Of a stretch of 32,000 nucleotides of DNA, positions 17,579 to 31,834 are shown in pieces (within the stretch, counting starts at the first letter, position 1; each line of letters opens with the position of its first letter). Location: assembly GCA_037444445.1 (NCBI GenBank), contig JBBIMK010000005.1:61837-93836 (forward strand), written 5' to 3'. The DNA comes from a bacterium. Lineage in GTDB: Bacteria > UBP7 > UBA6624 > JBBIMK01. The notes under the pieces were generated by a model that saw only the letters and a list, made by a program, of their open reading frames with translations, searched no databases and had not been told where the DNA came from. The position numbers and the translations under genes were made by a program.

Positions 17579-19555
17579 TTACAAATCCAGTCCCGCGCCC
17601 TTTTCGGAAGGCAATTGATTGCTACCTGGCTGGATCCAGAGGATATTATCCCGTGCGAAAGGTTTCGGGTAAGAATCTTCCCCGCCGCCGGTATCTAAAA
17701 AGATGCCAATCGTAGGCATAAAATCCCGAATTAGCCCTACCGGGCCACCCACGCTGGATTTACCGAGAGTTAAATCTGCGGACACACGGTAAATATCCTT
17801 CCCGCTTTTATCCCAGAATAAGCCCATACCGTTAGCATTACCGGCGCCGAGGCTGAGATTGGGGGCATCATAAACATCATCACCCGCCTCGTCTATCAGG
17901 AAACCCACGGTGAAATCGTGCCCGGCGCCTTGAGCCATATTATGGGTGGCGGAATAATGGTCGTTTCCTCCACCCTCCCAGAGGATGCCAACGCCGAAGT
18001 GGGCTCCTGCGCCCTGAACATACCAAACACCTTTATACTCATCATTCCCCGCTTTATCTGCGAGGATGCCCACGCCATACCAGTACGCCTGCCCCTGGCC
18101 GAAGACGCCGCAAGAGTAATGGTCATTTCCATCGCCATCCACGAGAATACCCACACCGCCTGCGAGGGAATGCCCATCCGTGAAATCTGCCCGCTTCCCC
18201 ATTCCCATCCCTTGCACAAGACTGCTGTTGTGTTCCTTCGTCTGGGCAGCAGGAAATTTGATGTCCGAATCGTTGCCCGTGTAAATATCGTCTCCGGCTA
18301 CATCCACCAGGAGCCCGCTACCGAGAACCCAACCATATCCCTGACCCTGCTGGTAGAGGGCATACGAGTCATTTCCCTGCAGGTCCGATAGGACGCCCAC
18401 ACCGAAGAACCCTGCCCCCTGCCCGCCCGCAAAAGCATCGTAGGAATCATCACCGGCTCTATCCATCAGGATGCCCGCGCCAAAGAATCCAGCGCCCTGC
18501 GTCAAAGACTTGCTCCTGTAAGTATCATTCCCCTGAAGGTCAACCAGATAAGCCCAGCCGAGAATGCCGGCGCCGAAGGAAGGAACCTTCGCATCCTCCG
18601 AGATATAGGTGTCATTCCCCTGAAGGTCAATCAGGATAGAGATGGGGTTGGCGGGGGAAGAGGATGCGCCCGTGGTGTAGGTGTCATTTCCACCCACATC
18701 CACAAGGATGAACGGGTTCTTTTCCGAATAGGAATCATCTCCTGCCCCCCGGATGGAAATGGCGCCCACAGGGGTGGAAGCATGGAAAGAAAATTTCTTA
18801 TCCGTGTGGAATGAAGAAAGAGATTTCACCACTTCATCCAGGGTGAGAGCGAGGTCAATACCGCCGGTATTCAGATACAGAAAATCCACCTGGTCGGCGA
18901 AAGATTCTACTCGCCGAATGACCTCCTCCTGCACCTGTTCCGAATCAATCCCCACCACATAGGAAATCGCATCGCCAAAAACTTTCTCCACATCCTTCAC
19001 TGCGACTTTCTGAAAAGCCAGGTCCCTCCAGGAGAGAACCTCAGCAGAGGTCACAACGAGCAATGCCACCTCCTTCGCTACTTCGGGTGGCACCTCCGAA
19101 GCGGTTTTTTGAAGCCGCTGGTATTCATTTTTCGGTAATTTTTTTCCGTTTTTCTCATAGAGGAATTGAATGGCGTTGGGGAGGACGTCCGTTTCTTTCA
19201 GTTTTTTCCGGTAGCCTTCCACAGGGTTGAAAATCAGGCTACGGCGGACAGAAGTTTTCACTTTTGCCGCCGTGCGCATCAACAGATTCCCTATAGATTC
19301 CGAGTTCTTCAGGGTGTCCTCCGCAAAATAAGGCACATAATTTGGAATTTTCAGGGGGCTATCTATGAAGACATCAAAGAAATGAAGACGATACTTATCC
19401 CCGCCGAAAAAATTCATATCCAGCCGGTCAAACTTCAGCGTCTCTTTCGTGTATCCGATGATGGGTAAAACCTTCTCCCACGGGTCTTCTTCAGCCACTC
19501 CCGAAATCAGCATCATTGCGAGGAGAATACCTGAGAAATTCAGATATTTTTTCAT
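17579..19555 (-). CDS. Exported protein with 13 tandem G-(N/D)-D-x-Y repeats (RTX-like beta-roll/beta-helix candidate), unknown function
   Basis: I chose the start at ATG 19555 (MKKYLNFSGILLAMMLISGVAEE, signal-peptide-like), with AGGAGG 9 nt upstream. The C-terminal roughly 370 aa carry AGDDSY, GGNDTY, QGNDTY x2, AGDDSY, QGNDSY, AGDDIY, DGNDHY, AGNDEY, GGNDHY, AGDDVY, SGKDIY and GGEDSY at a period of about 24-26 aa. Confidence 0.75.
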   Translation of the reverse strand: MKKYLNFSGILLAMMLISGVAEEDPWEKVLPIIGYTKETLKFDRLDMNFFGGDKYRLHFFDVFIDSPLKIPNYVPYFAEDTLKNSESIGNLLMRTAAKVKTSVRRSLIFNPVEGYRKKLKETDVLPNAIQFLYEKNGKKLPKNEYQRLQKTASEVPPEVAKEVALLVVTSAEVLSWRDLAFQKVAVKDVEKVFGDAISYVVGIDSEQVQEEVIRRVESFADQVDFLYLNTGGIDLALTLDEVVKSLSSFHTDKKFSFHASTPVGAISIRGAGDDSYSEKNPFILVDVGGNDTYTTGASSSPANPISILIDLQGNDTYISEDAKVPSFGAGILGWAYLVDLQGNDTYRSKSLTQGAGFFGAGILMDRAGDDSYDAFAGGQGAGFFGVGVLSDLQGNDSYALYQQGQGYGWVLGSGLLVDVAGDDIYTGNDSDIKFPAAQTKEHNSSLVQGMGMGKRADFTDGHSLAGGVGILVDGDGNDHYSCGVFGQGQAYWYGVGILADKAGNDEYKGVWYVQGAGAHFGVGILWEGGGNDHYSATHNMAQGAGHDFTVGFLIDEAGDDVYDAPNLSLGAGNANGMGLFWDKSGKDIYRVSADLTLGKSSVGGPVGLIRDFMPTIGIFLDTGGGEDSYPKPFARDNILWIQPGSNQLPSEKGAGLDL

Positions 19556-19577
19556 CTTTTCCGCCCTCCTTCTCCCA

Positions 19578-19586
19578 ATCATATCA
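19578..19586 (-). promoter_or_regulatory. Extended -10 element (TGaTATGAT) upstream of the GNDxY-repeat gene
   Basis: The minus strand reads cttgTGaTATGATtgggagaaggagggcggaaaagATG. The -10 ends 22 nt before the ATG at 19555. Confidence 0.35.
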
Positions 19587-19720
19587 CAAGCGGGAAGAAA
19601 AATTTTTATCCCATTTCTCTGGCAGGAACAGGGTGTCAACGAGCCCTGGACTCAAAAGGGAGGGAAGTGCGGAGTCAAGGCTGTCTGTGGGGGGAATCCA
19701 TTTGAATTTGTGACAGGAAT

Positions 19721-19786: not shown

Positions 19787-20473
19787 TTACGGTAGTTCCG
19801 GGGGGCTTATGCTTTCCTCAGGCTGGGATTCTTTCGGAATTCCGGGTTCTCCAGTTCCGGGACCTCTCTTCCAATCATCCCGGTTCAGGACGCTGTCGCC
19901 ATTCCGGTCCAGACGCTCAAAAAGGGTGTTTATACCCGTCTGAAATTCCTCCTTGCTCAAAGCCCCATCCTTGTTTGTATCCAACCGCGCCATGCGGGAG
20001 AAAACAGGAGGAAGGTTGTCTTGCCGCTTTTTCATTCCAGCGATGAATTCTTCTCCGGTAATGGCGCCATCGTGGTTTGCATCCAGCCTCTGGAATAACT
20101 CCTCGCGTCCGGGAAACTCATCCCTGACAATTTTTCCATCGCCATTGGCATCCAGTTTCTTCAGGTGCTCCAGGATTTTATCCTGCACTTCACCCAGGAA
20201 AGCGTTTCGTGCCTTCTGCGCCTCTTCCCTGGTGATGACACCATTTCCGTCAGAGTCCACCTTCTGGAAAAGGGTCATCCAGCCCGAAGTGAACTCCTCC
20301 CGGGAGATGGAACCATCTTTATTGGCATCAAATTTTTGCCACGCCATTCTCCCCGTATGCTTTACCGCTTCCTTTTTGAAATGTTCCCTTTTCACCGACC
20401 TTCCTTCCGGCTTACCCGCGAGCAGGAAGGGAACCACCAGCACCGCCGTAACTATCAGAATTATTTTTTTCAT
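19787..20473 (-). CDS. Exported EF-hand calcium-binding protein (six EF-hand loops)
   Basis: I chose the start at ATG 20473 (MKKIILIVTAVLVVPFLLAG, a signal peptide), with a GGAGGTG RBS upstream. The six canonical 12-residue loops are DANKDGSISREE, DSDGNGVITREE, DANGDGKIVRDE, DANHDGAITGEE, DTNKDGALSKEE and DRNGDSVLNRDD. Confidence 0.85.
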   Translation of the reverse strand: MKKIILIVTAVLVVPFLLAGKPEGRSVKREHFKKEAVKHTGRMAWQKFDANKDGSISREEFTSGWMTLFQKVDSDGNGVITREEAQKARNAFLGEVQDKILEHLKKLDANGDGKIVRDEFPGREELFQRLDANHDGAITGEEFIAGMKKRQDNLPPVFSRMARLDTNKDGALSKEEFQTGINTLFERLDRNGDSVLNRDDWKRGPGTGEPGIPKESQPEESISPPELP

Positions 20474-20645
20474 TCTTCCATTCACCTCCACTTTCCTATA
20501 AACAAGGAAAGGTTCTAAAAGTTTCATCCTGTTTTCAGAGAGGGATGAGTGGGGAATGTCAGAAGAAAATCTACCGGGAAATCATGCGGGAGGGCTGTGA
20601 CATCGGGAAATGTTTCTTTTCCTTAAGGGGAGCCCCCACCGATTT

Positions 20646-20708: not shown

Positions 20709-20738
20709 TTGACAAAGAGAAGGAGAATAAGATATAAT
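20709..20738 (+). promoter_or_regulatory. Consensus sigma70 promoter of tRNA-Pro
   Basis: TTGACA (20709-20714), an 18-nt spacer, then TATAAT (20733-20738). The mature tRNA 5' end is at 20754. Confidence 0.7.
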
Positions 20739-20753
20739 ATACACTCGCAAGAG

Positions 20754-20829
20754 CGGGATGTGGCTCAGCCTGGCTTAGAGCGCCTGGTTCGGGACCAGGA
20801 GGTCGCGGGTTCAAGTCCCGCCGTCCCGA
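20754..20829 (+). tRNA. tRNA-Pro (anticodon CGG)
   Basis: Manual cloverleaf fold. Acceptor CGGGATG/CGTCCCG, U8, D-stem GCTC/GAGC, anticodon stem CCTGG/CCAGG with loop TTCGGGA (U33, CGG, G37). T-arm GCGGG-TTCAAGT-CCCGC, discriminator A73. C1:G72 and A73 are bacterial tRNA-Pro identity features. No CCA is encoded. Confidence 0.95.
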
Positions 20830-20854: not shown

Positions 20855-21718
20855 ATGAAAAGGTGGATTTTTACAGGTATAATTTTGTTGACCGGGATTC
20901 CCTTATTTTCCCAGGAACCGGAGGAGTTGCTCCGCTCCTCTATTCGGATAAAACTGCCCACAGAAACCCCTGAACTTCCTGAAATTCAGGTGAATCGGCG
21001 TCTATTTCAGAAAGAAATGATTCTAAAGCAATTTTTAGGCGAGGTCCCCCCGAAAATAGAAGAAGGAAGTATTGAGGTCTACACGGGGAAAAATGGGCAA
21101 GAGGTGGATTTCTACCCCACCCAGGTTTTTTCCTTTTTACAGCCAATTCAACCTGAAGAAGAGAAAAAAACGATGAACGAGGCAGAAGCCCGAAAGGCGG
21201 TGAATGATTTCCTGGAGAGATTTGGGGGCTTGCCGGCAGAGGCTTATCTGTTAGAGAGTAAAGCCCTGCGGGGTGAAGGTGGAGCAGGGAATCTCTATTA
21301 TTACATTTACGCTCACAACTATCATAATGTGGCTGTGGAAACAGATGTGATACGCCTTACAGCAGGGGCAGGCCGTGTGGTGGAATTCGTCTTCGGATGG
21401 AGCACACCCGTGAAAGAATTTCCTTCAGTAAAAATCATTCCTGCTGAGGTGGGGCTGAAGAATGCCCTGAAATACCTGTATGTGGATATTCTGAAAAATA
21501 AATACTATGCCACGGCAGAAGTGACGGATGTGAAGTTATACTACTACAATAAGAGCCAGAAAGAGATAGAGCGGCTGGTGCCGGTGTGGCGGTTTACGAT
21601 GGTGCTGACGGGTCAGTCACTTCTCCAGCCGGGTCAAACGCAATTCAGGGAGCCAGAAGCCATCGGCTATTCCATTCAGGTGCGAATCAACGCCATCACG
21701 GGGGACCCGATCCGATGA
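20855..21718 (+). CDS. Exported protein with two PepSY-like modules, function unknown
   Basis: 287 aa. Signal peptide MKRWIFTGIILLTGIPLFSQ. The C-terminal segment VPVWRFTM...IQVRINAITGDPI resembles the PepSY ending (v.vDa.tG.i). A GGAAGGGAGAG RBS follows 25 nt after the tRNA. Confidence 0.55.
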   Translation: MKRWIFTGIILLTGIPLFSQEPEELLRSSIRIKLPTETPELPEIQVNRRLFQKEMILKQFLGEVPPKIEEGSIEVYTGKNGQEVDFYPTQVFSFLQPIQPEEEKKTMNEAEARKAVNDFLERFGGLPAEAYLLESKALRGEGGAGNLYYYIYAHNYHNVAVETDVIRLTAGAGRVVEFVFGWSTPVKEFPSVKIIPAEVGLKNALKYLYVDILKNKYYATAEVTDVKLYYYNKSQKEIERLVPVWRFTMVLTGQSLLQPGQTQFREPEAIGYSIQVRINAITGDPIR

Positions 21719-21800: not shown

Positions 21801-22733
21801 ATGAAGCGATATTCTCCACGGCCCACCCTCACGCTGATGGTTATGACAGAAAAGAGAGAGCCTCGTTTTTTCCGCCTCTCTTCCATAGTGGTTCGGTGGA
21901 GTCTGCTGGCGAGTGGAGTGCTACTGCTGGGGCTAACCCTCTGGATAGCCCGATACTTTTATCTGGAGAGTGAGGTTCGTAAACTCGCCGGTGTGAAGCA
22001 GATGCAGGAGCAGTTTGACACACTGAAGCAGGACCTGTTGGATGAAATGAAGAAATTCCATGCCCTTCAGGAGAAGGTTAGAAAACTGGAGGACCGGTTG
22101 AAGAGCAAGTCCTACGCACCACCACGAGAAGACACAGAAATGCAGGCTTTTCCGGTCCTTGAAGAGTCTACATTCTCACCTGATGGAATGGAGGATGCTC
22201 TGCAGGCATACAAACTTCTAACCTCACGCCGTGAAAAACTGGAAAGTCAATATGTTGCTCTGAACGAAGAAGTATCTCGGCGTCTCTCCCTTCTGGAATA
22301 TATGCCCTCCATTCCTCCCACCTCTACCCTGTCCATTTCCTCCGGCTTCGGGTATAGGCGGAATCCCCTGAGTGGCAGGAAGGATTTCCATCCGGGGCTG
22401 GACATTCGGGGGGACCCTTCGGATGTGGTTCGTGCTACTGCTTCGGGCACTGTGATTTTTGCGGGCTGGAAGGGGGGATATGGACGAACCGTAATCATTG
22501 ACCATGGAAATGGATTTGTTACCTGGTTTGCCCATAACTACAGTTTGACGGTTCGGAGCGGGGAACGAGTCAAAAAGGGGCAGGTAATTGCTCGCATCGG
22601 CAGCTCTGGCTACACGACAGGACCCCACCTGCACTACGAGGTTCATTACCGGGATAAAATCATAGACCCTCGCATTGTTCTAAATGTAAATGTGTTTACA
22701 GTAGAATCAATCCTGAGCAGGGTCCGGAGGTGA
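21801..22733 (+). CDS. M23-family metallopeptidase (peptidoglycan endopeptidase/LytM-type) with N-terminal TM and coiled coil
   Basis: 310 aa. Motifs: FGYRRNPLSGRKDFHPGLDI (HxxxD) and GSSGYTTGPHLHYEV (HxH). There is a hydrophobic stretch, WSLLASGVLLLGLTLWIA, and a heptad-rich linker. The exact start (21801 or the downstream in-frame ATGs at 21837/21843) is uncertain. Confidence 0.9.
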   Translation: MKRYSPRPTLTLMVMTEKREPRFFRLSSIVVRWSLLASGVLLLGLTLWIARYFYLESEVRKLAGVKQMQEQFDTLKQDLLDEMKKFHALQEKVRKLEDRLKSKSYAPPREDTEMQAFPVLEESTFSPDGMEDALQAYKLLTSRREKLESQYVALNEEVSRRLSLLEYMPSIPPTSTLSISSGFGYRRNPLSGRKDFHPGLDIRGDPSDVVRATASGTVIFAGWKGGYGRTVIIDHGNGFVTWFAHNYSLTVRSGERVKKGQVIARIGSSGYTTGPHLHYEVHYRDKIIDPRIVLNVNVFTVESILSRVRR

Positions 22734-22740
22734 GGAAAAG

Positions 22741-23133
22741 GTGTTTGGAAAGCGAGAGGCAAAAGAGGATAAAATCACGACCATCCTGGGGGGGAATAGT
22801 TCCTTTGAGGGGACGCTGAGCGACCTTCATTCCTTGCGAGTGGATGGCCGTTTCAACGGTGACATTTCCACGGAAGGAGAAATCTTTGTAGGAAAAATGG
22901 GATATGTCAAAGGGAACCTCACGGGGAAAAGCGTGTATGTGTATGGACGGGTTCATGGGAATTTGCAAGCCAAGGAGCGTATAGAAATTATAGAAGGCGG
23001 AGTGGTGGAAGGAGATTTACATACAAAACGCCTGGTTATTTATGAGGGCGCCGTGTTTAAGGGACACAGTTATATGGAGGAGATGGTGGTTCAACCGATG
23101 GCCGAGGGTGCGCGGAGTGCGATGGTTTCTTGA
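22741..23133 (+). CDS. Bactofilin-family cytoskeletal protein
   Basis: 130 aa. Shows the typical bactofilin beta-helix pattern: TILGGNSSFEGTLSDLHSLRVDGRFNGDISTEGEIFVGKMGYVKGNL.GKSVYVYGRVHGNLQAKERIEI..GGVVEGDLHTKRLVIYEGAVFKG. The GTG start has a GGAGGTGAGG RBS. Confidence 0.88.
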   Translation: MFGKREAKEDKITTILGGNSSFEGTLSDLHSLRVDGRFNGDISTEGEIFVGKMGYVKGNLTGKSVYVYGRVHGNLQAKERIEIIEGGVVEGDLHTKRLVIYEGAVFKGHSYMEEMVVQPMAEGARSAMVS

Positions 23134-23495
23134 ACCTCCTCCGAGCATGGGTAGTGGTTCTGGGTGGAACCTTTCTGACATGGCGCTGGTTAAAAGAGGG
23201 AATGCATGGGCAACAGGAAACAGCGTGGATGATTGGGTGGGCAATCGGGATAGGTATTCTCGCTGGTGTGGGGCTTTTGTGGTATTGCAAAACGGCATCC
23301 AGGGCGCTTTTCCGTAAACTATTTCTTTTTCTTCTCGGATTTACCATACTATGGGTGATTTTTCTGGCTACGGGCGCACCCTCTTCCCCCGCCCATAACT
23401 TCCTGTTTGAAGTGCTGGAAATGGTCTGGGTGGCCGTGATAGTCCTGCCCATTCTCTGGCAGAGGAGGGAAAATGGAAATCCTACTGGCACCTGA
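23130..23495 (+). CDS. Small integral membrane protein (about 4 TM), unknown function
   Basis: 121 aa with four hydrophobic stretches. The TTG start overlaps the bactofilin stop (TTGA). The first in-frame ATG, at 23202, would remove the first hydrophobic segment. The start codon is uncertain. Confidence 0.5.
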   Translation: MNLLRAWVVVLGGTFLTWRWLKEGMHGQQETAWMIGWAIGIGILAGVGLLWYCKTASRALFRKLFLFLLGFTILWVIFLATGAPSSPAHNFLFEVLEMVWVAVIVLPILWQRRENGNPTGT

Positions 23496-24636
23496 CTCGT
23501 TTAAGGGCACCCTGTGGGCCTGGGAAGTCAGCCAGGTTGTGGAAGAGGGATTGAGAGATAGCGGGCTTGACTGCCGCGTGGAGAAACTGCCCATCGCTGA
23601 CGGAGGAGAAGGAACGGCGGAAGTGCTGAGAAGGGCGTGGGGAGGAATACGGATGACCTCTCAAGTCAAAGGCCCTCTATACGAGAGAGTGGAAGCATCG
23701 TGGGGTCTGAGCCCGGATAGAAAAACGGCCGTCCTGGATATGGCTTCCGCTTCCGGGCTCACTCTCGTTCCACTGGAACGCAGAAATCCCCTGCTCACGA
23801 CCACTTATGGAACTGGAGAATTGATTCGGAATGCAATTCAATCGGGAGTGGAAGAGATTTTAGTGGGAATAGGAGGGAGTGCCACCGTAGATGGGGGTTT
23901 GGGCGCTCTCCGGGCACTGGGAGTAAAACTCTACGATGAACAGCGAAATCTTCTGGAGGGGCGAGGGCAGGACCTGCTTCGTCTCTCCGCGGTGGATGCG
24001 GAGGAAGCGGAAGCCATCGTGAGTTCCACCCGGATTGTGGCCATGGTGGATGTCCGGAACCCACTGTGCGGCCCGGAAGGGGCGGCTCGGGTCTACGGTC
24101 CCCAAAAAGGAGCCTCTCCTGAGGTGGTTGCCCTGCTGGAAGAGGGTCTGGAGAAGTGGGCAGAACGGATAGAAGTGGAGCGAGGGATAAGCGTGAAGAA
24201 CCTGCCCGGAGCGGGTGCGGCCGGTGGATTGCCTGCCGCTCTCGTTGCCTATCTCAATGCAGAAATCTGCGCCGGTGCTCCTTTCGTCTTGAAGCGTCTC
24301 CAGTTTGATGAAAAAGTAACCGGGAAGGACCTTCTGATTACGGGTGAAGGAATGGTGGATTCTAAAACTCTGTATGGAAAAGCACCCTACGAAGCCCTCC
24401 GAAGGGCAAAACAAAAGGGCATTCCGGTGGTTCTGCTGGCCGGTTCTCTGGGACCAGGCGCAGAGGAAGTCTACCGGCATGGTGCGGACCTAATCCTCGC
24501 TTCGTTCTATGGCAAAACGCCCTTCCAGGGGACCGAACAAGAAGCCCGAGAAAATCTCTACTTTCTGTCTTACTCTCTGGGTAAGTCATTCGTTCTGGGA
24601 AGGAGGCTTCCATCTTATGCCCAGGCCTCTTCGTAA
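23473..24636 (+). CDS. glxK: Glycerate kinase
   Basis: 387 aa. Motifs: MEILLAPDSFKGTL, PIADGGEGT, GIGGSATVDGGLG, PGAGAAGGL, ITGEGMVDSKTLYGKAP. It overlaps the upstream ORF by 23 nt. Confidence 0.9.
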   Translation: MEILLAPDSFKGTLWAWEVSQVVEEGLRDSGLDCRVEKLPIADGGEGTAEVLRRAWGGIRMTSQVKGPLYERVEASWGLSPDRKTAVLDMASASGLTLVPLERRNPLLTTTYGTGELIRNAIQSGVEEILVGIGGSATVDGGLGALRALGVKLYDEQRNLLEGRGQDLLRLSAVDAEEAEAIVSSTRIVAMVDVRNPLCGPEGAARVYGPQKGASPEVVALLEEGLEKWAERIEVERGISVKNLPGAGAAGGLPAALVAYLNAEICAGAPFVLKRLQFDEKVTGKDLLITGEGMVDSKTLYGKAPYEALRRAKQKGIPVVLLAGSLGPGAEEVYRHGADLILASFYGKTPFQGTEQEARENLYFLSYSLGKSFVLGRRLPSYAQASS

Positions 24637-27577
24637 AACTTTCTTCAGCAATCTGGATGCACTGAAGGAAATCCTGGGTAAGGAAAGCCCTTTAAGTCTC
24701 AAGGAAATTATCTCCCGGATCCAGAAAAAATATCTGCTGGATGAAAGTCAGGAGGTGATTAAGAGTGATTTCGTTCTCCCCGTGCTGAAGAAGCAGGATT
24801 ACTTTACCTGTGTAGAAGATGAAACAGAAGATGGAAAATGGTCTCTGGAGTATAAAAAACTTCCGGAGCATCAATGCGCCCTAAAAATCCTTCGTGCAGA
24901 AGGAAAGGTCATTCCGTCCAGGGTCTTGAGAGAAAGAATTGCTGAAAGTCTTCGCCTGCCGTTGAAGCGAGTTTTTTTCTTTCCTGAAAAAGACCCGGAG
25001 ACATTCAAGAAATTTTCCTTCCCGCTGAAGGTGGAAGAGGGAGAGTGCTGGGTTCCCAGGGACTGGCGGCTCATCAACGACGAAGCGGTGGAGATTCTGA
25101 GAAGGGAAAAGACCCCGCTGAATACCCGGGAAATAGAGGAAAAGGTGCGTGCCCACTATAAACTGGCTGAGCCGGTTCTCATCTTTGAACCCCGATGGGA
25201 TGACCGATTTGAGGCGCACAAGAGAAAATGGGTTCTTCGGGAAGAGCGAGAGGAGGTGATAGAGAAAAAGGCTACTTCCTGGGTTGTGGAAGTCACCCTG
25301 AAAGAAAAGGTCATTCAGGCGCTGGAGGAAATTCTTGAGAAAATGAAGCACCGCTCTCAGCCTTTCTCCCTCAATGATTTAACTCAGTCTTTACTCGGGA
25401 AAGAAGCCCAGGGTGTGAAAGATACCCTGTATTTTTCACTTCTGAGAGAATGCCTTCAAGCGAAAGAAGCCCGGGGCGAACTGGTCCGGGTCAGAGGGCA
25501 TCGGGAAACCTTCTCGCTTCGTGCTGCCTGGCGGTTGTCGGAAGACATTCCTTCCGCCGTGTTTACCCTGCCGATACGAGAGGAGCCTTTTGAGCCGAAA
25601 CCTTTTGAAATCTTGAGCGATAGGGGTTTGGACCCCGAAATGGTTGCTATCCTAAAAAACCCATACGATTATTTTTACGACGGCGATTATGAGGAGCACC
25701 AATTCCCTCCCTCCGGTTTCTGCATCTTCATCACTTATCATGAAATGCTCACGGGAATCGTTGCTCTTTCAGCCCCTGGAAAAGCCTTTCTAAAAAAGGA
25801 ATTGGGCTTATTCTTTGAGGGTTCTTCGGGGGAGAGACCCCACTCACCCGAAACCGGTCCCGTGGCAGAACTGGAGGTGCGTATTCCCGACGGGACAAAC
25901 CTCAACATTTTTATCCACCTGGGCACGGGGTTGGTCTTCGGCCTGGAAGATTTTATCAGCCGTTACTCCGAGCCCGGGGCCTGCTATCGCGTGGAAGTCA
26001 CAGGCCCTTACCAGTTATCTCTGACACCGGAAGTTACACCCAGTCTATCCGAAATCTCCATCATCACTGGAGAAGAAATTGAGCGGCTGGATGAAATGAT
26101 TCCACGACTACCGGAACTTTCTTTATTCCAGGTGATGGTGGAGATTCTGTCCCAGTACAAAGAGGGTTTGACCGTGATGGACCTGTACCATCGGGTGCAG
26201 TATCTACGGCGAACCAGCCGACGCCACCTTTTCAGCCTCCTGTGCCAGCACTATGCTTTCCAGAAGAAGGACCAGAAATGGAAAATTATGCCTGAACGAG
26301 TTGCCTGGGAGAAGAGGAAATCCCTTCTGGTTCATGCCCGGGAATTTCTCGCCAGCCAGTCTTTTTCCTTTTCCTTCGCGGGTCCGAAAATCCCACTTCG
26401 GGAAAAAGAAGATGGGTGGACGCTTACGCTGAGAGGAATCAAAATCCTGCCCCGACCCCGGGATTACATCCTCCTGTTTTCCCGACATGATGAGGCTTAT
26501 GTGGGAAGTTTCTTTGCTTCCTCCGTTCATCGCATCAACGACGCAGAAGTCATCATAGAGACCCCTGCGCTGGAGTTGTGGGAAGTGAAAGTCCCCCTGG
26601 AGAAGGGCTGGAAAGTGGGATTGGAACGAACTTCTCTGTATCCTCTCCGCACCACCATGCTTTCAAAACTGCTGGAAACTTTTGACCGTCTTTCCTATGC
26701 TTACTGGGTGAAGAAAACCCTGACACGTTCCTTTCGTTTCGTGGAGATGACCCCGGCGCTCACGCAGAAATCTAAAGATGAAATCCAGGAATTGAAAGGG
26801 TATCTGGAAGAGGAACAAAGCCCGTTTCTTGCCCTGAAAGGGATTTCCTGGCAACTTCAGATGACGCCAACTTATGAGGAGTTTAACAAAATTCTGGAGG
26901 AAAAACATTATTCTCGTGGAGAACGAACCCGTCTGAAACCCTGGGAAATGCAAGAGGCTGTATTGAGTCTTGAACTTTCTTTCCCTCAGCGTCTTCTCTT
27001 CTTCCCTCTGGGGGAGGGAGAGTGGGCCCTGTCCATTCTGGAGGACTTTAAAAAGCAACTGATAGAAGGGGGCTACGGTGTAGAGGAAGAGGGAGTGAAA
27101 TTCTTCCTGTCAGGGCAGGAAGAGATTCTGCCCTGGGAAAAGATAGTCTCGGACCGGCGGAGAGTGGAAAAAATTCGCATGCGAGAAGACGACTTGAATA
27201 CGGATGAAGCGTTGAATGCTTTACTGGAGCGATATACTCTGGGGGTGGAACCTCGCCGTTCCCTTTTCCTGATTGCCAGCCTAAGCCTCCGATTCAAGGG
27301 CTTCGGCAGCCTTCCGTTGATGAACAAACGGGTGGAAGATTTCCTGCGGGATTCTCCCGGGCCGGATGAACTGGAAAGGAATGGCTTTGACCGCATAATC
27401 GGCGACCTGCGCAATCTATCGCATAAAGAGGTTCGGAATATCCTCACAGGCATACCTTCCTTTCTTCGTGCCGGTGGGCTTGCGTCCTTCTTCATCCACA
27501 CAGATGTTAAAGGGCTGGCGGTGGATTCTGAAAAGGTTTTATCCGACGCCGTGAAACTGGTCTTCCTCCGACGATGA
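24617..27577 (+). CDS. Large uncharacterised protein (986 aa) with several winged-helix (HARE-HTH-like) modules
   Basis: I chose the start at ATG 24617 (MPRPLRK...), with AGGAGG 10 nt upstream. The track start at 24509 lies inside glxK. There is no Walker A motif and no catalytic motif I recognise. A module recurs of the form: helix, P(L/F)(S/N/T)xx(E/D)(I/L), helix, then a W-containing hairpin. Confidence 0.8.
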   Translation: MPRPLRKTFFSNLDALKEILGKESPLSLKEIISRIQKKYLLDESQEVIKSDFVLPVLKKQDYFTCVEDETEDGKWSLEYKKLPEHQCALKILRAEGKVIPSRVLRERIAESLRLPLKRVFFFPEKDPETFKKFSFPLKVEEGECWVPRDWRLINDEAVEILRREKTPLNTREIEEKVRAHYKLAEPVLIFEPRWDDRFEAHKRKWVLREEREEVIEKKATSWVVEVTLKEKVIQALEEILEKMKHRSQPFSLNDLTQSLLGKEAQGVKDTLYFSLLRECLQAKEARGELVRVRGHRETFSLRAAWRLSEDIPSAVFTLPIREEPFEPKPFEILSDRGLDPEMVAILKNPYDYFYDGDYEEHQFPPSGFCIFITYHEMLTGIVALSAPGKAFLKKELGLFFEGSSGERPHSPETGPVAELEVRIPDGTNLNIFIHLGTGLVFGLEDFISRYSEPGACYRVEVTGPYQLSLTPEVTPSLSEISIITGEEIERLDEMIPRLPELSLFQVMVEILSQYKEGLTVMDLYHRVQYLRRTSRRHLFSLLCQHYAFQKKDQKWKIMPERVAWEKRKSLLVHAREFLASQSFSFSFAGPKIPLREKEDGWTLTLRGIKILPRPRDYILLFSRHDEAYVGSFFASSVHRINDAEVIIETPALELWEVKVPLEKGWKVGLERTSLYPLRTTMLSKLLETFDRLSYAYWVKKTLTRSFRFVEMTPALTQKSKDEIQELKGYLEEEQSPFLALKGISWQLQMTPTYEEFNKILEEKHYSRGERTRLKPWEMQEAVLSLELSFPQRLLFFPLGEGEWALSILEDFKKQLIEGGYGVEEEGVKFFLSGQEEILPWEKIVSDRRRVEKIRMREDDLNTDEALNALLERYTLGVEPRRSLFLIASLSLRFKGFGSLPLMNKRVEDFLRDSPGPDELERNGFDRIIGDLRNLSHKEVRNILTGIPSFLRAGGLASFFIHTDVKGLAVDSEKVLSDAVKLVFLRR

Positions 27578-30258
27578 ATCTCTCCCTTTTTCTGATTGTG
27601 CTTCTTCTTCTGGTGGCTGTGGGAGTAGGCGGCTTCTGGGCTCATCGCAGGCAAATTCGTCGTTTGAAGTCTTACTTCCGTTCCAGCCTTTTGAACCTGC
27701 AAGAAGGGAAGCCCATCCCGGAAGAGCCTCTCCTGAAAGAGATTCAACCCACCCTGCTCCAATTATTCCAGCAAAGCCAGGAACTGGCACAAAACCAACA
27801 GAATTTGGAAAGAAAGAACGCTCATCTCCAGGCAAACCAGTTATTTCTGAGGACTCTCCTGGAACTCATGAACTGGCAGGGTCCCAGAGCTGAACTTCAG
27901 GAGACCCTTGTGCACCTTCTGCTGGATGTTCTTCAAGTGGAGCAAGTGCTGTTCTTTGACTATGTTCCAAGTATAAAAGGTTTTCATTTTGCATGCCAGG
28001 CGGGAAAACCTGGCGTCGTGCCACCTTCTCTTCAATTAAGCCCGGATGAACATCCCTTCTTCCTGCGGAGAATTTTTACATCCCGAGCCTCCATCGCGCT
28101 TCAGCCAGATGACCCTGAAGCGGGTTTCCTTTTATCAGCAGTGAAAACAAATCGGGGGTTCTTGAGCCTGCTCCGACGGGAAGGCTCCCTCTACGGGCTC
28201 CTGCTCATCACTATTACCGCAGAGGATTCTGCTACCCTTCAGAAAATCCAGGAAATGTTTGACGACTATACGAAAATCATTACACTCCTGCTGGAAAATC
28301 ATGCAGTGCGGGAGGAAAGTCAGAGGCATATTAAGGACCTGGAACTGGTTCATCAGATTAATCTGCAAATCAGTTCCATTCTGGAATTTTCGAATATCCT
28401 CACAACCTCAGTTGAACAGGTAGCCCGGGCTCTGGAATCCGATGTGGCTATGATTGAATTAGTGGAAAACGATGAAATCCATCTCAGGGCTTCTTCAGGA
28501 ATTTCCCTGGAAGAAGTGAAAGGGATGTCTCGGATGAAAATCGGCGAGAGTTTGTCGGGATGGGTAGCGGCGGCAGGAACTCCCCTGGCGGTAGAGAACA
28601 TTGAACTGGACCCCCGGTTCAAATTCAAAGGACAAGCCCGGGCCCTGGGCCTCACTTCCTACTGTGGTGTGCCGCTGATTATTACGGGAAAACTGATTGG
28701 TGTTCTTTCCGTTCTAAACCGGCAACCCCGAATCTATTCGCCCCGAGAAATTGACCTTCTAAATACCATCGCTGGCTCCCTGGGTGTGTTCTTAGAGCAG
28801 GCGACTCTCTACCAGCAGCTGCAGGATAAACTCCAGGAATTGGAAAGCGTTCACCAACAACTGAAAGCCCATGATAAAGAAATCCTTCATCTCAACCAGC
28901 AGTTGCAAGCCCTCCAACAATTCCAGCAGGAACTGGTCCACTCTCTCCCCCGGGCACTACTCAATCCCTTAACTATCATCAAAGGAACCGCTTCCATCTT
29001 CCAGACTGGCTTACAACAGACAGAGAAAGAGAAGGAGATTTTTTTCACCTTTCTGAATACACAGGTAGATGCTATGGTGGATTTCCTATCTCAACTCTCC
29101 GACTTTCTTCTGATTCAATCCGGTCAATTTGCTTTGTATCCAGAAACCCAATCATTAAAGGCTTTTCTTGAAACTCTTTTCGTGCCGTATCACGCTCTGG
29201 GGCAGGCAAAATTTAACACTTTTCAAACGCAAATCTTCGCAGAAGGAGAACAAGCGGTATTTGACCCTCGGCGTCTTCGTCTTATCTTCCGAGGCGTCCT
29301 TGGAAGAGCGTTTAGTAAGTCTAAAACTGGTGACACCATCTTTTTGCAAGCCCGCGCTGGACCCCTGGAAAAACTTCCATTCTCGCCACCCGTAAAACTA
29401 TCTCCGGGAGAGTATTTATGGGTTACACTTCAGATGATTTCCGCAGAAGGGGTTCACAGAAAACCCTCGGAAGTGTTTGACACTCTAACGAAAGAGATTG
29501 AACCCATTCCCGGCAAGCCGGAAGCATTCGCCCGGGGATTTGAGGATTTCTTGACGCGGTATTTCATCTCTGCTCATGGTGGAACCTTATGGGTGGAAGA
29601 TGGAAAGATAGATGAACCGAAAATCCATTTCACTGTTTCCATTTCCCCTACCCCTTATATCACGACTGCGGAGAAAGGGTTGGTTCCTTACACCCGCCCA
29701 CTCGGTATCCGTTCCATCCTCCTTTTCCAGAAAGGATGGGATATTCAGCCCTGGCTGACCCTTCTCCAGAAGCATGTTCCATCCATTCTACGGGCAGAAA
29801 ATTCTATGGAAGCACAAGAGATTTTAAAAAAAGAGGAGCCCGATTGCTTGTTTGTTCCCGCAGCTATTTCGGGCGATATACTTCATCTCCAGGAGGAAAT
29901 CGTAAAGGGGAGTGGAGTTTCACAGAGTGTGCCCTGTGTCGTGGCTCCCCGGGACCCTCCCACGACTCCCGCTTCTACCCCACTCTATCTCCTCGTCTTG
30001 CATACTCTACGGGATAGATTTCATCCGCAGCCCGCACACTGGGAAATCGTGTATATAGATACGCTGGAGGCTCTGCGGAAGGCGACACAAATGGAGATGA
30101 AATATCATTCTATATGCCTGTTTGATTTTCCTCTGTTGACGGAAGTATATGAAACACTGGTGAACCTGCAGGGGCAAGGGTGTTTTTTGATTCTTTCGCC
30201 GAGGGAAAAGTTGCCCCTGATCCTGGATTGTCTTCACAGAGTTCTCATCGCACCATGA
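27574..30258 (+). CDS. Membrane-anchored GAF-GAF-DHp protein with degenerate HATPase and receiver-like regions (histidine-kinase-like pseudokinase)
   Basis: 894 aa. N-terminal TM LFLIVLLLLVAVGVGGFW. Clear GAF at about aa 262-412 (GESLSGWVAAAGTPLAVENIELDPRF ... YCGVPLIITGKLIGVLSVLN). Coiled coil, then an H-box-like ELVHSLPRALLNPLTIIKG. The N/G1/G2 box positions read RGVLGRAFSKS / MISAEG / ARGFED. The ATG overlaps the upstream stop (ATGA). Confidence 0.8.
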   Translation: MNLSLFLIVLLLLVAVGVGGFWAHRRQIRRLKSYFRSSLLNLQEGKPIPEEPLLKEIQPTLLQLFQQSQELAQNQQNLERKNAHLQANQLFLRTLLELMNWQGPRAELQETLVHLLLDVLQVEQVLFFDYVPSIKGFHFACQAGKPGVVPPSLQLSPDEHPFFLRRIFTSRASIALQPDDPEAGFLLSAVKTNRGFLSLLRREGSLYGLLLITITAEDSATLQKIQEMFDDYTKIITLLLENHAVREESQRHIKDLELVHQINLQISSILEFSNILTTSVEQVARALESDVAMIELVENDEIHLRASSGISLEEVKGMSRMKIGESLSGWVAAAGTPLAVENIELDPRFKFKGQARALGLTSYCGVPLIITGKLIGVLSVLNRQPRIYSPREIDLLNTIAGSLGVFLEQATLYQQLQDKLQELESVHQQLKAHDKEILHLNQQLQALQQFQQELVHSLPRALLNPLTIIKGTASIFQTGLQQTEKEKEIFFTFLNTQVDAMVDFLSQLSDFLLIQSGQFALYPETQSLKAFLETLFVPYHALGQAKFNTFQTQIFAEGEQAVFDPRRLRLIFRGVLGRAFSKSKTGDTIFLQARAGPLEKLPFSPPVKLSPGEYLWVTLQMISAEGVHRKPSEVFDTLTKEIEPIPGKPEAFARGFEDFLTRYFISAHGGTLWVEDGKIDEPKIHFTVSISPTPYITTAEKGLVPYTRPLGIRSILLFQKGWDIQPWLTLLQKHVPSILRAENSMEAQEILKKEEPDCLFVPAAISGDILHLQEEIVKGSGVSQSVPCVVAPRDPPTTPASTPLYLLVLHTLRDRFHPQPAHWEIVYIDTLEALRKATQMEMKYHSICLFDFPLLTEVYETLVNLQGQGCFLILSPREKLPLILDCLHRVLIAP

Positions 30259-30854
30259 GTGCGTCTGCCATCTCCTTTTTATTCTTTCTCGGCGCCTTCT
30301 TTCTCGGGTCCATTCCCTCTGGTTATCTCATCACACAGGCCTGGAAAGGGGTGGATGTGCGAACCGTAGGAAGCGGAAATATTGGATTTACCAATGTGGT
30401 TCGGGCAGCGGGTTGGACACCAGGGCTCCTCACGCTCTTGCTGGACTTCTCCAAAGGTTTCTTTCCCGTGTGGCTTGCCAGTCGGTGGACTCCAAATTTA
30501 AATTTACTGCTTTGTATCGGTGCCTTTAGCCTCATCGGGCATCTGTTCACTCCCTGGCTACATTTTAAGGGCGGGAAAGGAATTGCCACTGGATTTGGCG
30601 TCACTACCGCTATTTTCCGGTGGTATATCCTCTTTCCTCTGGCGATTTTTCTCCTGTTATTCCTGACCACACGCATCGTTTCCATCTCTTCCCTATCCGC
30701 CAGTTTATCCCTTCTCGTCCTGATGTTTTTCTTACCTGACTTTCGCCAGCAACCGGTAGCGATACTGCTGGTTTTCGTGATGGTGGCACTCATCTTTTAT
30801 CGCCACCAGGAAAATATCCAGCGATTTTTGAAGGGTGAGGAAAGACGGATATGA
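30255..30854 (+). CDS. plsY: Glycerol-3-phosphate acyltransferase PlsY
   Basis: I chose the start at ATG 30255 (MSASAISFLFFLGAFFLGSIPSGY), which overlaps the upstream stop (ATGA). Motifs: GSGNIGFTNV, HFKGGKGIATGFG. Confidence 0.92.
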   Translation: MSASAISFLFFLGAFFLGSIPSGYLITQAWKGVDVRTVGSGNIGFTNVVRAAGWTPGLLTLLLDFSKGFFPVWLASRWTPNLNLLLCIGAFSLIGHLFTPWLHFKGGKGIATGFGVTTAIFRWYILFPLAIFLLLFLTTRIVSISSLSASLSLLVLMFFLPDFRQQPVAILLVFVMVALIFYRHQENIQRFLKGEERRI

Positions 30855-31834
30855 AAGCAGGAATCATCGGGAGTGGCGCCTGGGGCACTGTCCTGGCTCA
30901 TCTTCTTGCCACTCAGAAGCACTCCGTTACCTGGTGGGTTCGGGAAGAGGATGTGTGTGAAAGCGTGAGGGAAGAGCATGAGAATTTTTTGTTCTTTCCA
31001 GACTTTTCAGTGAATCCTGACATAGAAGTCACGACAGACCCTTCCCTGCTTTCATCAGCAGAAGTTTTCCTTTTTGCTGTGCCATCCCCGTTTGCACGCA
31101 CCATCTTAAGACAATTCTCTGGAGTGCTATCTTCTCGGGTTCCTTTCATCTCCGCCACCAAGGGAGTAGAAGCCTCTCCATTCAAACGCATCAGCGAGGT
31201 GATAGAAGAAGAGATCCCCGGGTTAAAAATCGGGGTGCTCTCGGGCCCCAATCTTTCCAGGGAGGTAGCCAGAGGCGACCCATCTGCCACCGTCATCGCT
31301 TCCTCTCACGAGGAGGTTCTTCAACTGGGTCAGTCCTTGTTTGCGGGTTCCAACCTTCGGGTCTACACCTCTCAGGATGTCATCGGGGTGGAAATCGGCG
31401 GCTCCTTCAAAAACATCATTGCTATCGCCTCCGGTATGGCCACCGGGCTGGGATATGGAGCCAACACCCTGGGAGCCCTCCTTGCACGAGGACTGGCAGA
31501 AATGAAACGGGTGGGTGCTTGCCTCGGCGCTCTGTCAGAAACCTTCTCCGGCCTGGCGGGCGTCGGCGACCTGGTCACCACCTGCGCAAGCCCTTTAAGC
31601 CGAAACTATACCCTGGGCTTCCGCCTGGCACAGCAAGAACCATTAGAAAAAATCCTCTCCCATTCCCCCCATATAGCGGAAGGTGTCCCCACCACGAAAG
31701 CCTATTACACCCTCGCCCTGGAAAATAATCTGGACCTTCCCATCACCCGTGAGGTCTATCAAATCCTCTTTGAGAAGAAGGACCCAAAATCTGTCGTCCA
31801 ATCCCTGATGTCCCGCCCCCTCAAACCCGAATAG
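30851..31834 (+). CDS. gpsA: NAD(P)H-dependent glycerol-3-phosphate dehydrogenase
   Basis: 327 aa. Motifs: MKAGIIGSGAWGT, ISATKGVE, LSGPNLSREVA, GGSFKNIIAIASG, GDLVTTCASPLSRNY. The ATG overlaps the plsY stop (ATGA). Confidence 0.95.
   Translation: MKAGIIGSGAWGTVLAHLLATQKHSVTWWVREEDVCESVREEHENFLFFPDFSVNPDIEVTTDPSLLSSAEVFLFAVPSPFARTILRQFSGVLSSRVPFISATKGVEASPFKRISEVIEEEIPGLKIGVLSGPNLSREVARGDPSATVIASSHEEVLQLGQSLFAGSNLRVYTSQDVIGVEIGGSFKNIIAIASGMATGLGYGANTLGALLARGLAEMKRVGACLGALSETFSGLAGVGDLVTTCASPLSRNYTLGFRLAQQEPLEKILSHSPHIAEGVPTTKAYYTLALENNLDLPITREVYQILFEKKDPKSVVQSLMSRPLKPE

Follow-up and report, generated by a model that had tools for sequence, protein, structure and literature searches.

A 32,000-nucleotide stretch of contig JBBIMK010000005.1 (GenBank assembly GCA_037444445.1; positions 61,837 to 93,836 of the forward strand), here called the window, carries two very large, overlapping genes, A and B, in the midst of an otherwise housekeeping gene train. 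The parts of the two encoded proteins are of known kinds, namely, HARE-HTH winged helices, an HsdM-like methyltransferase fold, a GAF domain, and the relic of a histidine kinase. What is undescribed in the libraries and literature that we searched is the architecture of protein A, its place in the core genome, the invariant pairing with a glycerate kinase gene (glxK), and the pairing with a decaying kinase. We propose, tentatively and with slightly less than even confidence, that A is a domesticated DNA-recognition scaffold and that B is its lineage-specific membrane partner. This proposal draws on the gene structure of the locus, selection on its genes, domain folds, the state of key sequence motifs, and synteny.

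The two genes, defined from a list of open reading frames (ORFs) and from junction sequences, are as follows.

24617-27577 (+), gene A, 986 amino acids
27574-30258 (+), gene B, 894 amino acids

The six-frame ORF that contains A spans 24509-27577. Its ATG at 24617 was chosen as the start, which is judged sensible because a GGAGG sits 8 nt upstream. Both ORFs, and the overlaps that join them to their neighbors, are as described in an initial annotation of the window, which had been made from the letters alone. Gene A overlaps the end of glxK (stop codon, 24634-24636) by 20 nt, the A/B junction is an ATGA overlap that reads cgacgATGAatc, and the B/plsY junction at 30255 is another ATGA overlap (caccATGAgtg). 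Because of these overlaps and the train that they share with cell envelope enzymes, A and B are expected to be made together with those enzymes.

Orthologs and synteny of protein A

The orphan family that protein A defines is very rare. Only three homologs (95, 46, and 36% identity) were returned when 5.8 billion proteins were searched with a word index, and a fourth (86%) was reached via the ortholog of B. When 1.84 billion representatives were searched exhaustively with an HMMER profile, 9 hits, some of them fragments, reached an E value of ≤1e-30, and 134 reached ≤1e-3.

The orthologs belong to two clades. The inner clade, which includes the window, is represented by seven loci (L001 to L007). 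A nine-gene order, running from a gene for a secreted protein of ~290 residues through gpsA, is identical in L001 to L006, and the short contig L007 keeps glxK, A, a B ortholog, and plsY. Genes A and B are adjacent, and mostly overlapping, in all seven. This clade is very deep, since GltX encoded in the window is only 54% identical to that of "bacterium JZ-2024 1," compared with 46 to 50% to GltX of Bacillota, Margulisbacteria, or Chloroflexota. The sole named member of the clade is filed by NCBI under unclassified Bacteria.

The outer clade, which is marine, was recovered by scanning GTDB species genomes and JGI metagenomes, together with the profile search. Its members encode full-length A orthologs of 954 to 983 residues with 22 to 25% identity. 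When all window proteins were compared with every locus by tblastn, none of B, plsY, gpsA, the M23 peptidase gene, or the bactofilin gene was found near A in this clade; downstream of A are instead an Amidase_2 gene and a gene for an amino acid permease with Usp domains. What both clades have in common is glxK, which lies immediately upstream of A in 17/17 loci that include upstream DNA. The glxK/A junctions usually overlap (e.g., 8001/8004 in L008 and 7815/7818 in L012), and GlxK itself is only 30 to 34% identical between the clades. Moreover, the secreted ~290-residue protein of the window is homologous to the product of the gene before glxK in the outer clade (28% identity; E value, 2e-21; L012, 5736-6656). 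The deepest conserved unit is therefore the gene for the secreted protein, followed by glxK and A, because both clades share it, while B, plsY, and gpsA belong to the inner clade only. The initial annotation had presented A and B as a pair tied to enzymes of phospholipid precursor synthesis. Both parts of that picture hold for the inner clade, in which A and B stay adjacent and plsY and gpsA follow; neither extends to the outer clade, in which B, plsY, and gpsA are not near A and glxK is always upstream.

Winged helices and middle module of protein A

Protein A was modeled with AlphaFold2 from a 99-sequence alignment that included remote relatives (mean predicted local distance difference test [pLDDT] score, 88.4; predicted template modeling score, 0.62). 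The model and the sequence comparisons define nine structured regions, all encoded on the plus strand.

Residues 10-78 (24644-24850, +): wH1, HARE-HTH-like; AlphaFold2 topology and weak Pfam match
Residues 83-152 (24863-25072, +): wH2, like the N-terminal domain of RNA polymerase delta; profile, hhalign, and AlphaFold2
Residues 154-207 (25076-25237, +): wH3; hhalign to wH2 and AlphaFold2
Residues 223-307 (25283-25537, +): wH4, extended; AlphaFold2 topology only
Residues 313-483 (25553-26065, +): middle module, with a small beta-sandwich at its end; conserved more strongly than any other part
Residues 485-557 (26069-26287, +): wH5, with the basic helix RRTSRRHL; AlphaFold2 and invariant residues
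Residues 582-660 (26360-26596, +): all-beta domain of eight strands; AlphaFold2
Residues 679-785 (+): helical region; AlphaFold2
Residues ~790-986 (26984-27574, +): C-terminal alpha/beta domain, like class I S-adenosylmethionine (SAM) methyltransferases; Foldseek and motif alignments

Each of the five winged-helix modules has the topology H-H-H-beta-beta and is modeled with a pLDDT score above 90. The initial annotation had read at least five repeats in A as winged helices, and they coincide with the five winged helices of the structure prediction. As a description of the whole protein, it was incomplete: the methyltransferase-like domain, the barrel at residues 582-660, and the conserved middle module had been missed. 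A regular-expression search agrees with its statement that A has no Walker A motif. The annotation had also recognized no described system here, and searches of Pfam, NCBIfam, PADLOC, and PDB sequences likewise give no family-level match; as a single-sequence query, A returns nothing above threshold from any of these libraries.

Sequence comparison supports three of the five winged helices (wH1, wH2, and wH3). Module wH1 matches Pfam HARE-HTH (PF05066) with 23.8 bits (E value, 6e-5) over residues 14-42 only, which is below the gathering score of 25.9. Such matches on wH1, subthreshold or weak, occur in three of four A orthologs, and the gathering score is passed by some remote relatives (P0087, 34.6 bits; P0208, 29.4 bits). 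A profile of the 99-member family, searched against the PDB, matches the N-terminal domain of RNA polymerase delta (2krc, E value of 4.3e-7; 7f75, 2.4e-6; 6zca, 1.7e-6; range to 1e-5) in an alignment with residues ~83-150 of A, i.e., wH2. Module wH3 is related to wH2 by hhalign (93% probability; E value, 3e-7), gives weak WH_Rok matches in three of four orthologs, and has the invariant residues D195, R197, F198, and W205. No significant sequence match was found between wH4 and the other modules of A.

In a 10-ortholog alignment, most positions that are invariant across both clades fall in the basic helix of wH5 and in the middle module. The latter, which ~90 remote relatives share, contains the invariant segment DxGLDP...YFxDGD(F/Y)xE..FPP (residues 335-365; 25619-25711). 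This acidic cluster is confidently modeled with little regular secondary structure; it may bind a metal or ligand or serve as a docking strand. In wH5, residues R526, R535, R536, S540, W555, and R561 are invariant, and the signature RRTSRRHL...W also appears in the 99-sequence consensus.

An earlier AlphaFold2 run with only four sequences had a pLDDT score of 48, and its Foldseek matches, to generic winged helices and weakly to B3-type barrels, are tentative. Forkhead and H1 winged helices were matched with probabilities of 0.9 to 1.0 but E values of >0.05. Similarly, the all-beta domain matched the B3-type domains of LlaJI.R1 (N-terminal) and BfiI (C-terminal) with probabilities of 0.96 to 0.99 but E values of 0.02 to 0.1, from this low-confidence model and with no aligned coordinates. 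Residues 582-660 are possibly, on this tentative basis, a DNA-binding pseudobarrel of the B3/EcoRII-N type.

A methyltransferase-like domain with an altered motif IV

When the confident model of A was searched against the PDB with Foldseek, the top 50 matches were essentially all class I SAM methyltransferases (E values, 5e-5 to 2e-3; probability, 1.0; TM score [target], ≤0.6). The matches include RlmKL, AviRa, Trm11, RumA, the type I M subunit 3ufb, RsmD-like proteins, PrmA, CamA, and BsaXI. Adenine-specific DNA methyltransferases were also matched in the viral library BFVD.

The methyltransferase motifs were located by alignment with relatives.

Motif X-like helix and motif I (GxG, PLGEGE): RLKPWEMQEAV...LLFFPLGEGEWAL
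Motif II acid: LGVEPRR (VEPR); E or D in all orthologs
Motif III: VEDFL (EDFL)
Motif IV position: FDRIIGDLRNL, with GDLR in place of NPPY

Motifs I to III of A align to the SAM-binding motifs of its relatives. The profile match to HsdM is marginal: over motifs X and I, a profile of the C-terminal domain matches the HsdM structures 3ufb and 2okc with E values of 0.03 to 0.06. The motif IV position reads GDLR(N/G) in the inner clade and (A/V)D(F/L)R in the outer clade, such that D930 and R932 are nearly invariant across both, and an NPPY-type motif, (D/N/S)PP(Y/F/W), occurs nowhere in the A orthologs. Between motifs I and II, A has a large beta-hairpin insert (SDRRR..IR.RED). Neither A nor its isolated C terminus matches any methyltransferase hidden Markov model (HMM) in Pfam, NCBIfam, or PADLOC. 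We file the domain as methyltransferase-like only; the model predicts a class I SAM methyltransferase fold of the HsdM/N6_Mtase type whose catalytic motif is broken.

A wider superfamily with differing C termini

The N-terminal array of A, the middle module, or the two together recur in remote relatives, arranged as in A, and the C termini of these relatives differ. P0073 (1,137 residues) has an above-threshold Pfam N6_Mtase match in the same position as the C-terminal domain of A, along with PADLOC matches to a type I methyltransferase and to mad2. A family of ~650-residue proteins carries an A-like domain with the motif IV sequence GN(F/L)(T/A)F and matches PADLOC mad2. In P0081 and P0112, Pfam recognizes Sigma70_r2 and Sigma70_r4 in place of the C-terminal domain of A. 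Finally, a family of ~610 to 690 residues consists of an HARE-HTH region, the middle module, and wH5, with no C-terminal domain (L010, 3244-5073; P0092, P0096, and P0213). This last family is widespread in Armatimonadota (Fimbriimonadia and Armatimonas), where its members lie in housekeeping neighborhoods and are always annotated as hypothetical. Because the platform is shared and the C termini differ, it appears to be a portable module for recognition whose outputs are exchangeable; A would be the version embedded among housekeeping genes, with a decayed output domain.

Two remote relatives lie in DISARM loci, directly after DrmB/DrmC (L017, 7001-9523, 840 residues; L018, 7001-9706, 901 residues). 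The loci themselves are well supported by PADLOC matches to DrmA (E values, 5e-206 and 2e-290 for L017 and L018), DrmB (1e-60 and 2e-88), and DrmC (8e-18), and they include a DrmMII-like C5 methylase. For P0067, the cluster representative of the L017 protein (P0208), the domain E values are 1e-18 and 8e-13, and tblastn relates the L017 and L018 proteins to A with E values of 3e-9 and 5e-8. One of the two is P0081, with sigma-70 regions 2 and 4 at its C terminus. We considered whether these proteins are DrmE and rejected this, as the PADLOC DrmE models match neither. A literature search on DISARM, DrmE, and winged helices found nothing relevant, and the multi-winged-helix gene in L017 and L018 may be an undescribed DISARM accessory component. 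Other remote relatives sit among housekeeping genes, and glxK was next to none of the sampled relatives of other lengths.

Protein B, a membrane-anchored pseudokinase

Protein B comprises the following regions.

Residues 1-25 (27574-27648, +): N-terminal transmembrane anchor, then basic HRRQIRR; hydropathy scan
Residues ~85-250 (27826-28323, +): N-terminal conserved module; BLASTP to the L007 protein
Residues 274-405 (28393-28788, +): GAF domain; Pfam and PDB
28897-29673 (+): degenerate kinase core, with DHp-like helices and a CA-like region; alignment with P0006
29701-30255 (+): C-terminal ~185 residues; receiver-like by eye

A hydropathy scan found one hydrophobic segment only, which agrees with the single N-terminal anchor of the initial annotation. 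Because this segment is followed by HRRQIRR, the rest of B is taken to be cytoplasmic. The annotation had also predicted more than one GAF domain. One is clear, with Pfam matches to GAF (64.5 bits; E value, 1.9e-17) and GAF_2 (57.8 bits; E value, 1.7e-15) over residues 273-408 and resemblance to the PDB GAF structures 5w10 and 3ci6. A second GAF domain at residues 85-250 could not be verified and was rejected, since hhalign gave a probability of 0.2% against the GAF domain and the region has no profile similarity to this family.

The evidence that B descends from a histidine kinase is its full-length orthology to P0006 (34% identity; E value, 5e-132), together with weak matches of residues 442-594 to NCBIfam PhoR/BaeS and to PDB 4jas. 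P0006 is a canonical kinase, with the H-box SSVTHELRTPL, an N box, DTGIGI, and GIGLYL, and with Pfam matches to HisKA (64 bits) and HATPase_c (102 bits). In B, the aligned H-box reads HSLPRALLNPL, which places Arg460 (28951-28953) at the position of the phosphoacceptor histidine. The N, G1, and G2 boxes of the CA-like region are degenerate or lost, and no Pfam HisKA or HATPase_c match was found at an E value of ≤0.1. With the histidine replaced and the ATP-binding boxes gone, "pseudokinase," the term used in the initial annotation, is right for this lineage, in which B can presumably no longer autophosphorylate. Pfam finds no match in the C-terminal ~185 residues, where the alignment shows a conserved PD...VP...FP pattern; to the eye, this region looks receiver-like.

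The orthologs of B form a decay series. The kinase is intact in one lineage (P0006), the histidine is an arginine in two (the window and JZ-2024), and the domain is unrecognizable in a fourth. In the latter, the 768-residue ortholog of L007 matches only residues 5-281 of B (BLASTP E value, 3e-14), has no Pfam domain, and retains no recognizable GAF or kinase region.

The window also contains a canonical hybrid kinase (GAF-GAF-PAS-HisKA-HATPase_c-REC; 925 residues; 2238-5015, −), which offers an internal contrast to the degenerate B.

Selection and genomic setting

Ratios of nonsynonymous to synonymous substitution rates (dN/dS) were calculated by the Nei-Gojobori method against two close relatives. 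A has ratios of 0.15 and 0.20, B has 0.17 against either relative, and the flanking genes have 0.10 to 0.24, except for bactofilin, which has zero amino acid change relative to the closest relative. Since the ratios for A and B are low and in the range of their housekeeping neighbors, both are real genes that evolve under purifying selection. The window has a uniform base composition, and Pfam and PADLOC scans found no mobile-element or defense genes in it. An origin of A and B in a mobile element or defense island was rejected on the grounds of fixed synteny, housekeeping neighbors, uniform composition, and housekeeping-like dN/dS.

The nine-gene train begins right after tRNA-Pro and encodes, in order, the secreted ~290-residue protein, an M23 peptidase, a bactofilin, a small transmembrane protein, GlxK, A, B, PlsY, and GpsA. 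Besides A and B, it contains the following features.

20855-21718 (+): secreted ~290-residue protein, first gene of the train; signal-peptide-like N terminus
21801-23495 (+): M23 peptidase, bactofilin, and small membrane protein; Pfam Peptidase_M23 (E value, 1.6e-32) and Bactofilin (4.7e-26)
23473-24636 (+): glxK (glycerate kinase), directly upstream of A; Pfam Gly_kinase (E value, 3e-127)
30255-31834 (+): plsY and gpsA; NCBIfam PlsY TIGR00023 (E value, 2e-46), both GpsA domains matched

Pfam and NCBIfam thus agree with the initial annotation on the identities of glxK, plsY, and gpsA. The secreted ~290-residue protein has no Pfam match. From bactofilin through gpsA, the seven genes overlap by 4 to 23 nt at every junction, with plsY and gpsA joined to each other by a 4-nt overlap. 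A terminator scan inside the operon gave a chance-level result (21 sites versus 15.5 ± 4.2 expected), which neither supports nor refutes a single transcript. The M23 peptidase has an N-terminal coiled coil, and the genes of its cluster are separated by short gaps or overlap. Pairs of bactofilin and M23 peptidase genes that determine cell shape are known from Helicobacter and Hyphomonas, and we take the cluster of M23 peptidase, bactofilin, and small polytopic membrane protein in the window to resemble these modules.

Several further observations concern the surroundings. Just 5′ of tRNA-Pro(CGG) (20754-20829) is a promoter that matches the sigma-70 consensus perfectly (20709-20738; TTGACA, 18 nt, TATAAT), and 25 nt separate this tRNA gene from the first of the nine genes downstream. 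Two additional large ORFs have no Pfam match (15848-17563, +, 571 residues; 17579-19639, −, 686 residues), and a gene for a 246-residue multi-EF-hand protein (19787-20527, −) adjoins them; L006 has equivalent neighbors, namely, a 661-residue protein with no Pfam match and an EF-hand protein. In L004 (9430-9969), the locus of the kinase-intact B ortholog, the plsY call is short (120 residues) and follows a gap of ~220 nt after B. PlsY residues 21-197 are nevertheless recovered there by tblastn, and a gene-calling or frameshift problem in the contig probably accounts for the short call.

A proposed domesticated recognition scaffold and its rivals

In the reading that we favor, A would belong to a modular superfamily and would have been domesticated as a core-genome protein. 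Members of the superfamily would share a platform made of an HARE-HTH-type winged-helix array plus a conserved middle module (a beta-sandwich and a basic winged helix), and the C-terminal output would be exchangeable. Among the relatives, the output would be a genuine N6-adenine methyltransferase or sigma-70 regions 2 to 4, and some relatives are part of DISARM loci. That of A would be an HsdM-like fold in which the SAM-pocket motifs (GxG, the beta-2 acid, and DF) remain and the catalytic (D/N)PP(Y/F) loop is gone. A would then most likely act as a noncatalytic or atypically catalytic nucleic acid-binding scaffold, whose target would probably be DNA and possibly RNA polymerase. B would be the inner clade's partner of A, a cytoplasmic GAF protein that is held at the membrane by one helix, and a complex of the two might serve a tethering or regulatory role there. 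The initial annotation had suggested the stoichiometric coexpression of a sensor/scaffold module; the codon overlaps are consistent with this, and cotranslation with envelope enzymes may have a functional meaning.

A number of points weigh against this scaffold-plus-anchor reading. The A-B pair is not the conserved unit: B is not in the outer clade, and therefore A functions without it there. Invariant coupling between glxK and A is the strongest unexplained signal in our data, and no model accounts for it well. The mechanism is one that we infer, and both the binding of nucleic acid or RNA polymerase by the winged helices and an interaction between A and B are putative. In RNA polymerase delta, the HARE-HTH domain has the polymerase, not DNA, as its binding partner, and hence, the platform of A may be a protein-docking device. 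With its retained SAM-pocket motifs and near-invariant D930 and R932, the C-terminal domain could still be an enzyme with an unusual active site. Moreover, in profile searches, the middle module, the beta-barrel, and the helical region have no significant PDB match, and the fold class of the middle module is unmatched.

Other explanations overlap in part with the one that we favor. If A is an active methyltransferase of DNA, RNA, or protein, guided by its winged-helix array and using a noncanonical motif IV (D-L/F-R), then glxK and B are mere neighbors. The class I fold, found with a probability of 1.0, speaks for this possibility, as do the conserved GxG of motif I, acid of motif II, and DF of motif III, the persistence of D930 and R932 in both clades, and the Pfam-recognized N6_Mtase domain of P0073 in the same position. 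Activity is nevertheless unlikely, in our view: the (D/N/S)PP(Y/F/W) loop, including its aromatic residue, is missing from every A ortholog, NPPY gives way to N(F/L)(T/A)F even in the ~650-residue relatives, the methyltransferase HMMs of three libraries are silent, and invariant positions are fewer in the C-terminal domain than in the middle module. It is distinctly unlikely that A is an RNA polymerase accessory factor, a giant delta analog or sigma-associated adaptor that docks via its HARE-HTH modules. The N-terminal domain of delta is the sole significant PDB sequence match, and two relatives fuse the platform to sigma-70 regions 2 and 4. That similarity, however, spans ~75 of 986 residues, A has no delta-like acidic tail, and no RNA polymerase gene is nearby in the window. 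HARE-HTH domains are also common in restriction and modification proteins, as the Pfam family description indicates.

A third possibility, which we consider quite improbable, is that A works with glycerate kinase, recruiting it, regulating it, or being regulated by it, and that B, plsY, and gpsA joined the operon later. The strict position of glxK directly upstream of A in all 17 loci, often with an overlap, argues for such a partnership, as does the persistence of this coupling despite 22 to 25% (A) and 30 to 34% (GlxK) identity between the clades, in addition to the lack of an adjacent glxK in all sampled relatives of other lengths. Weighing on the other side, GlxK looks like an ordinary full-length enzyme, and since both clades also keep the gene that precedes glxK, part of the linkage may reflect inherited gene order. 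To our knowledge, no precedent or chemical logic ties glycerate kinase to a winged-helix or methyltransferase-like protein, and a literature search found no paper mentioning both HARE-HTH and glycerate kinase. It is very improbable that A and B, alone or together with glxK, form a cryptic anti-phage or self/non-self DNA surveillance system whose parts come from DISARM or restriction-modification. Remote relatives do lie directly after DrmB/DrmC in DISARM loci, the ~650-residue relatives match mad2, and the beta-barrel may be a restriction-enzyme-type B3 domain. Yet PADLOC gives nothing for A, B, or their orthologs, and the window has no nuclease, helicase, or active methyltransferase partner. 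Unlike defense islands, A has a fixed housekeeping-operon position across very deep divergence, and its evolutionary rate equals that of its housekeeping neighbors. Lastly, the domesticated scaffold and its membrane partner can be extended into a proposal to which we give little credence. Here, A and B would link the membrane to the nucleoid (or to RNA polymerase) through a restriction/DISARM-type platform, a SAM-sensing dead methyltransferase, and a dead GAF kinase as anchor and ligand sensor. Their cotranslation with bactofilin/M23, GlxK, PlsY, and GpsA would couple the state of the chromosome or of transcription to envelope growth.

Significance

Few large conserved proteins are as rare as A, yet at least two deep, uncultured clades have it as a core gene product under purifying selection. 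We posit that it exemplifies a DNA-recognition platform of the defense or restriction-modification type (HARE-HTH plus an HsdM-like fold) that was taken into a housekeeping operon; the origin of Noc from ParB is a parallel case of domestication. The platform looks like a general "reader" with exchangeable outputs and may help to interpret uncharacterized DISARM accessory genes. The decay of B offers a natural series for studying how pseudokinases originate, and the invariant coupling of glxK and A is a concrete, testable association that has no current explanation. If true, a membrane-to-nucleoid or membrane-to-RNA polymerase link would be a coordination device of a kind not described before, in a deep-branching lineage.

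Comparison with known systems

Like canonical GAF sensor histidine kinases, including P0006, B has the order of transmembrane helix, N-terminal module, GAF domain, coiled coil, DHp, CA, and C-terminal domain. It differs from them in having Arg460 for the acceptor histidine and in the loss of its N, G1, and G2 boxes. The bactofilin/M23 cell-shape pairs have their counterpart in the window, where the M23 peptidase gene is directly followed by the bactofilin gene in the same train; here, however, these genes are neighbors of A and B rather than part of them, and they are not in the outer clade.

For A, comparison with the gamma-class N6-adenine DNA methyltransferases (N6_Mtase, PF02384; type I HsdM, 3ufb and 2okc) reveals the same Rossmann methyltransferase fold and the colinear motif order X, I, II, III, and IV (the last at the end of beta-4). 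The differences are the change from NPPY to GDLR, the lack of recognition by HMMs, the hairpin insert, and the lack of HsdS or HsdR partners. With HARE-HTH and RNA polymerase delta (RpoE; 2krc, 6zca, and 7f75), A shares the winged-helix fold, and wH2 matches the delta N-terminal domain. Delta, however, is a protein of ~170 residues that consists of an HARE-HTH domain and a polyanionic tail, whereas A has 986 residues, nine structured regions, five winged-helix modules, and no acidic tail. From DISARM, which combines the helicase DrmA, DrmB (DUF1998/MZB), and DrmC (PLD) with a methyltransferase, the window differs in having no DrmA, DrmB, or DrmC; PADLOC is silent on A and B, and the C-terminal domain of A is of a different kind. 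What links A to DISARM is the extra gene of L017 and L018, whose product shares both the N-terminal winged-helix array and the middle module of A.

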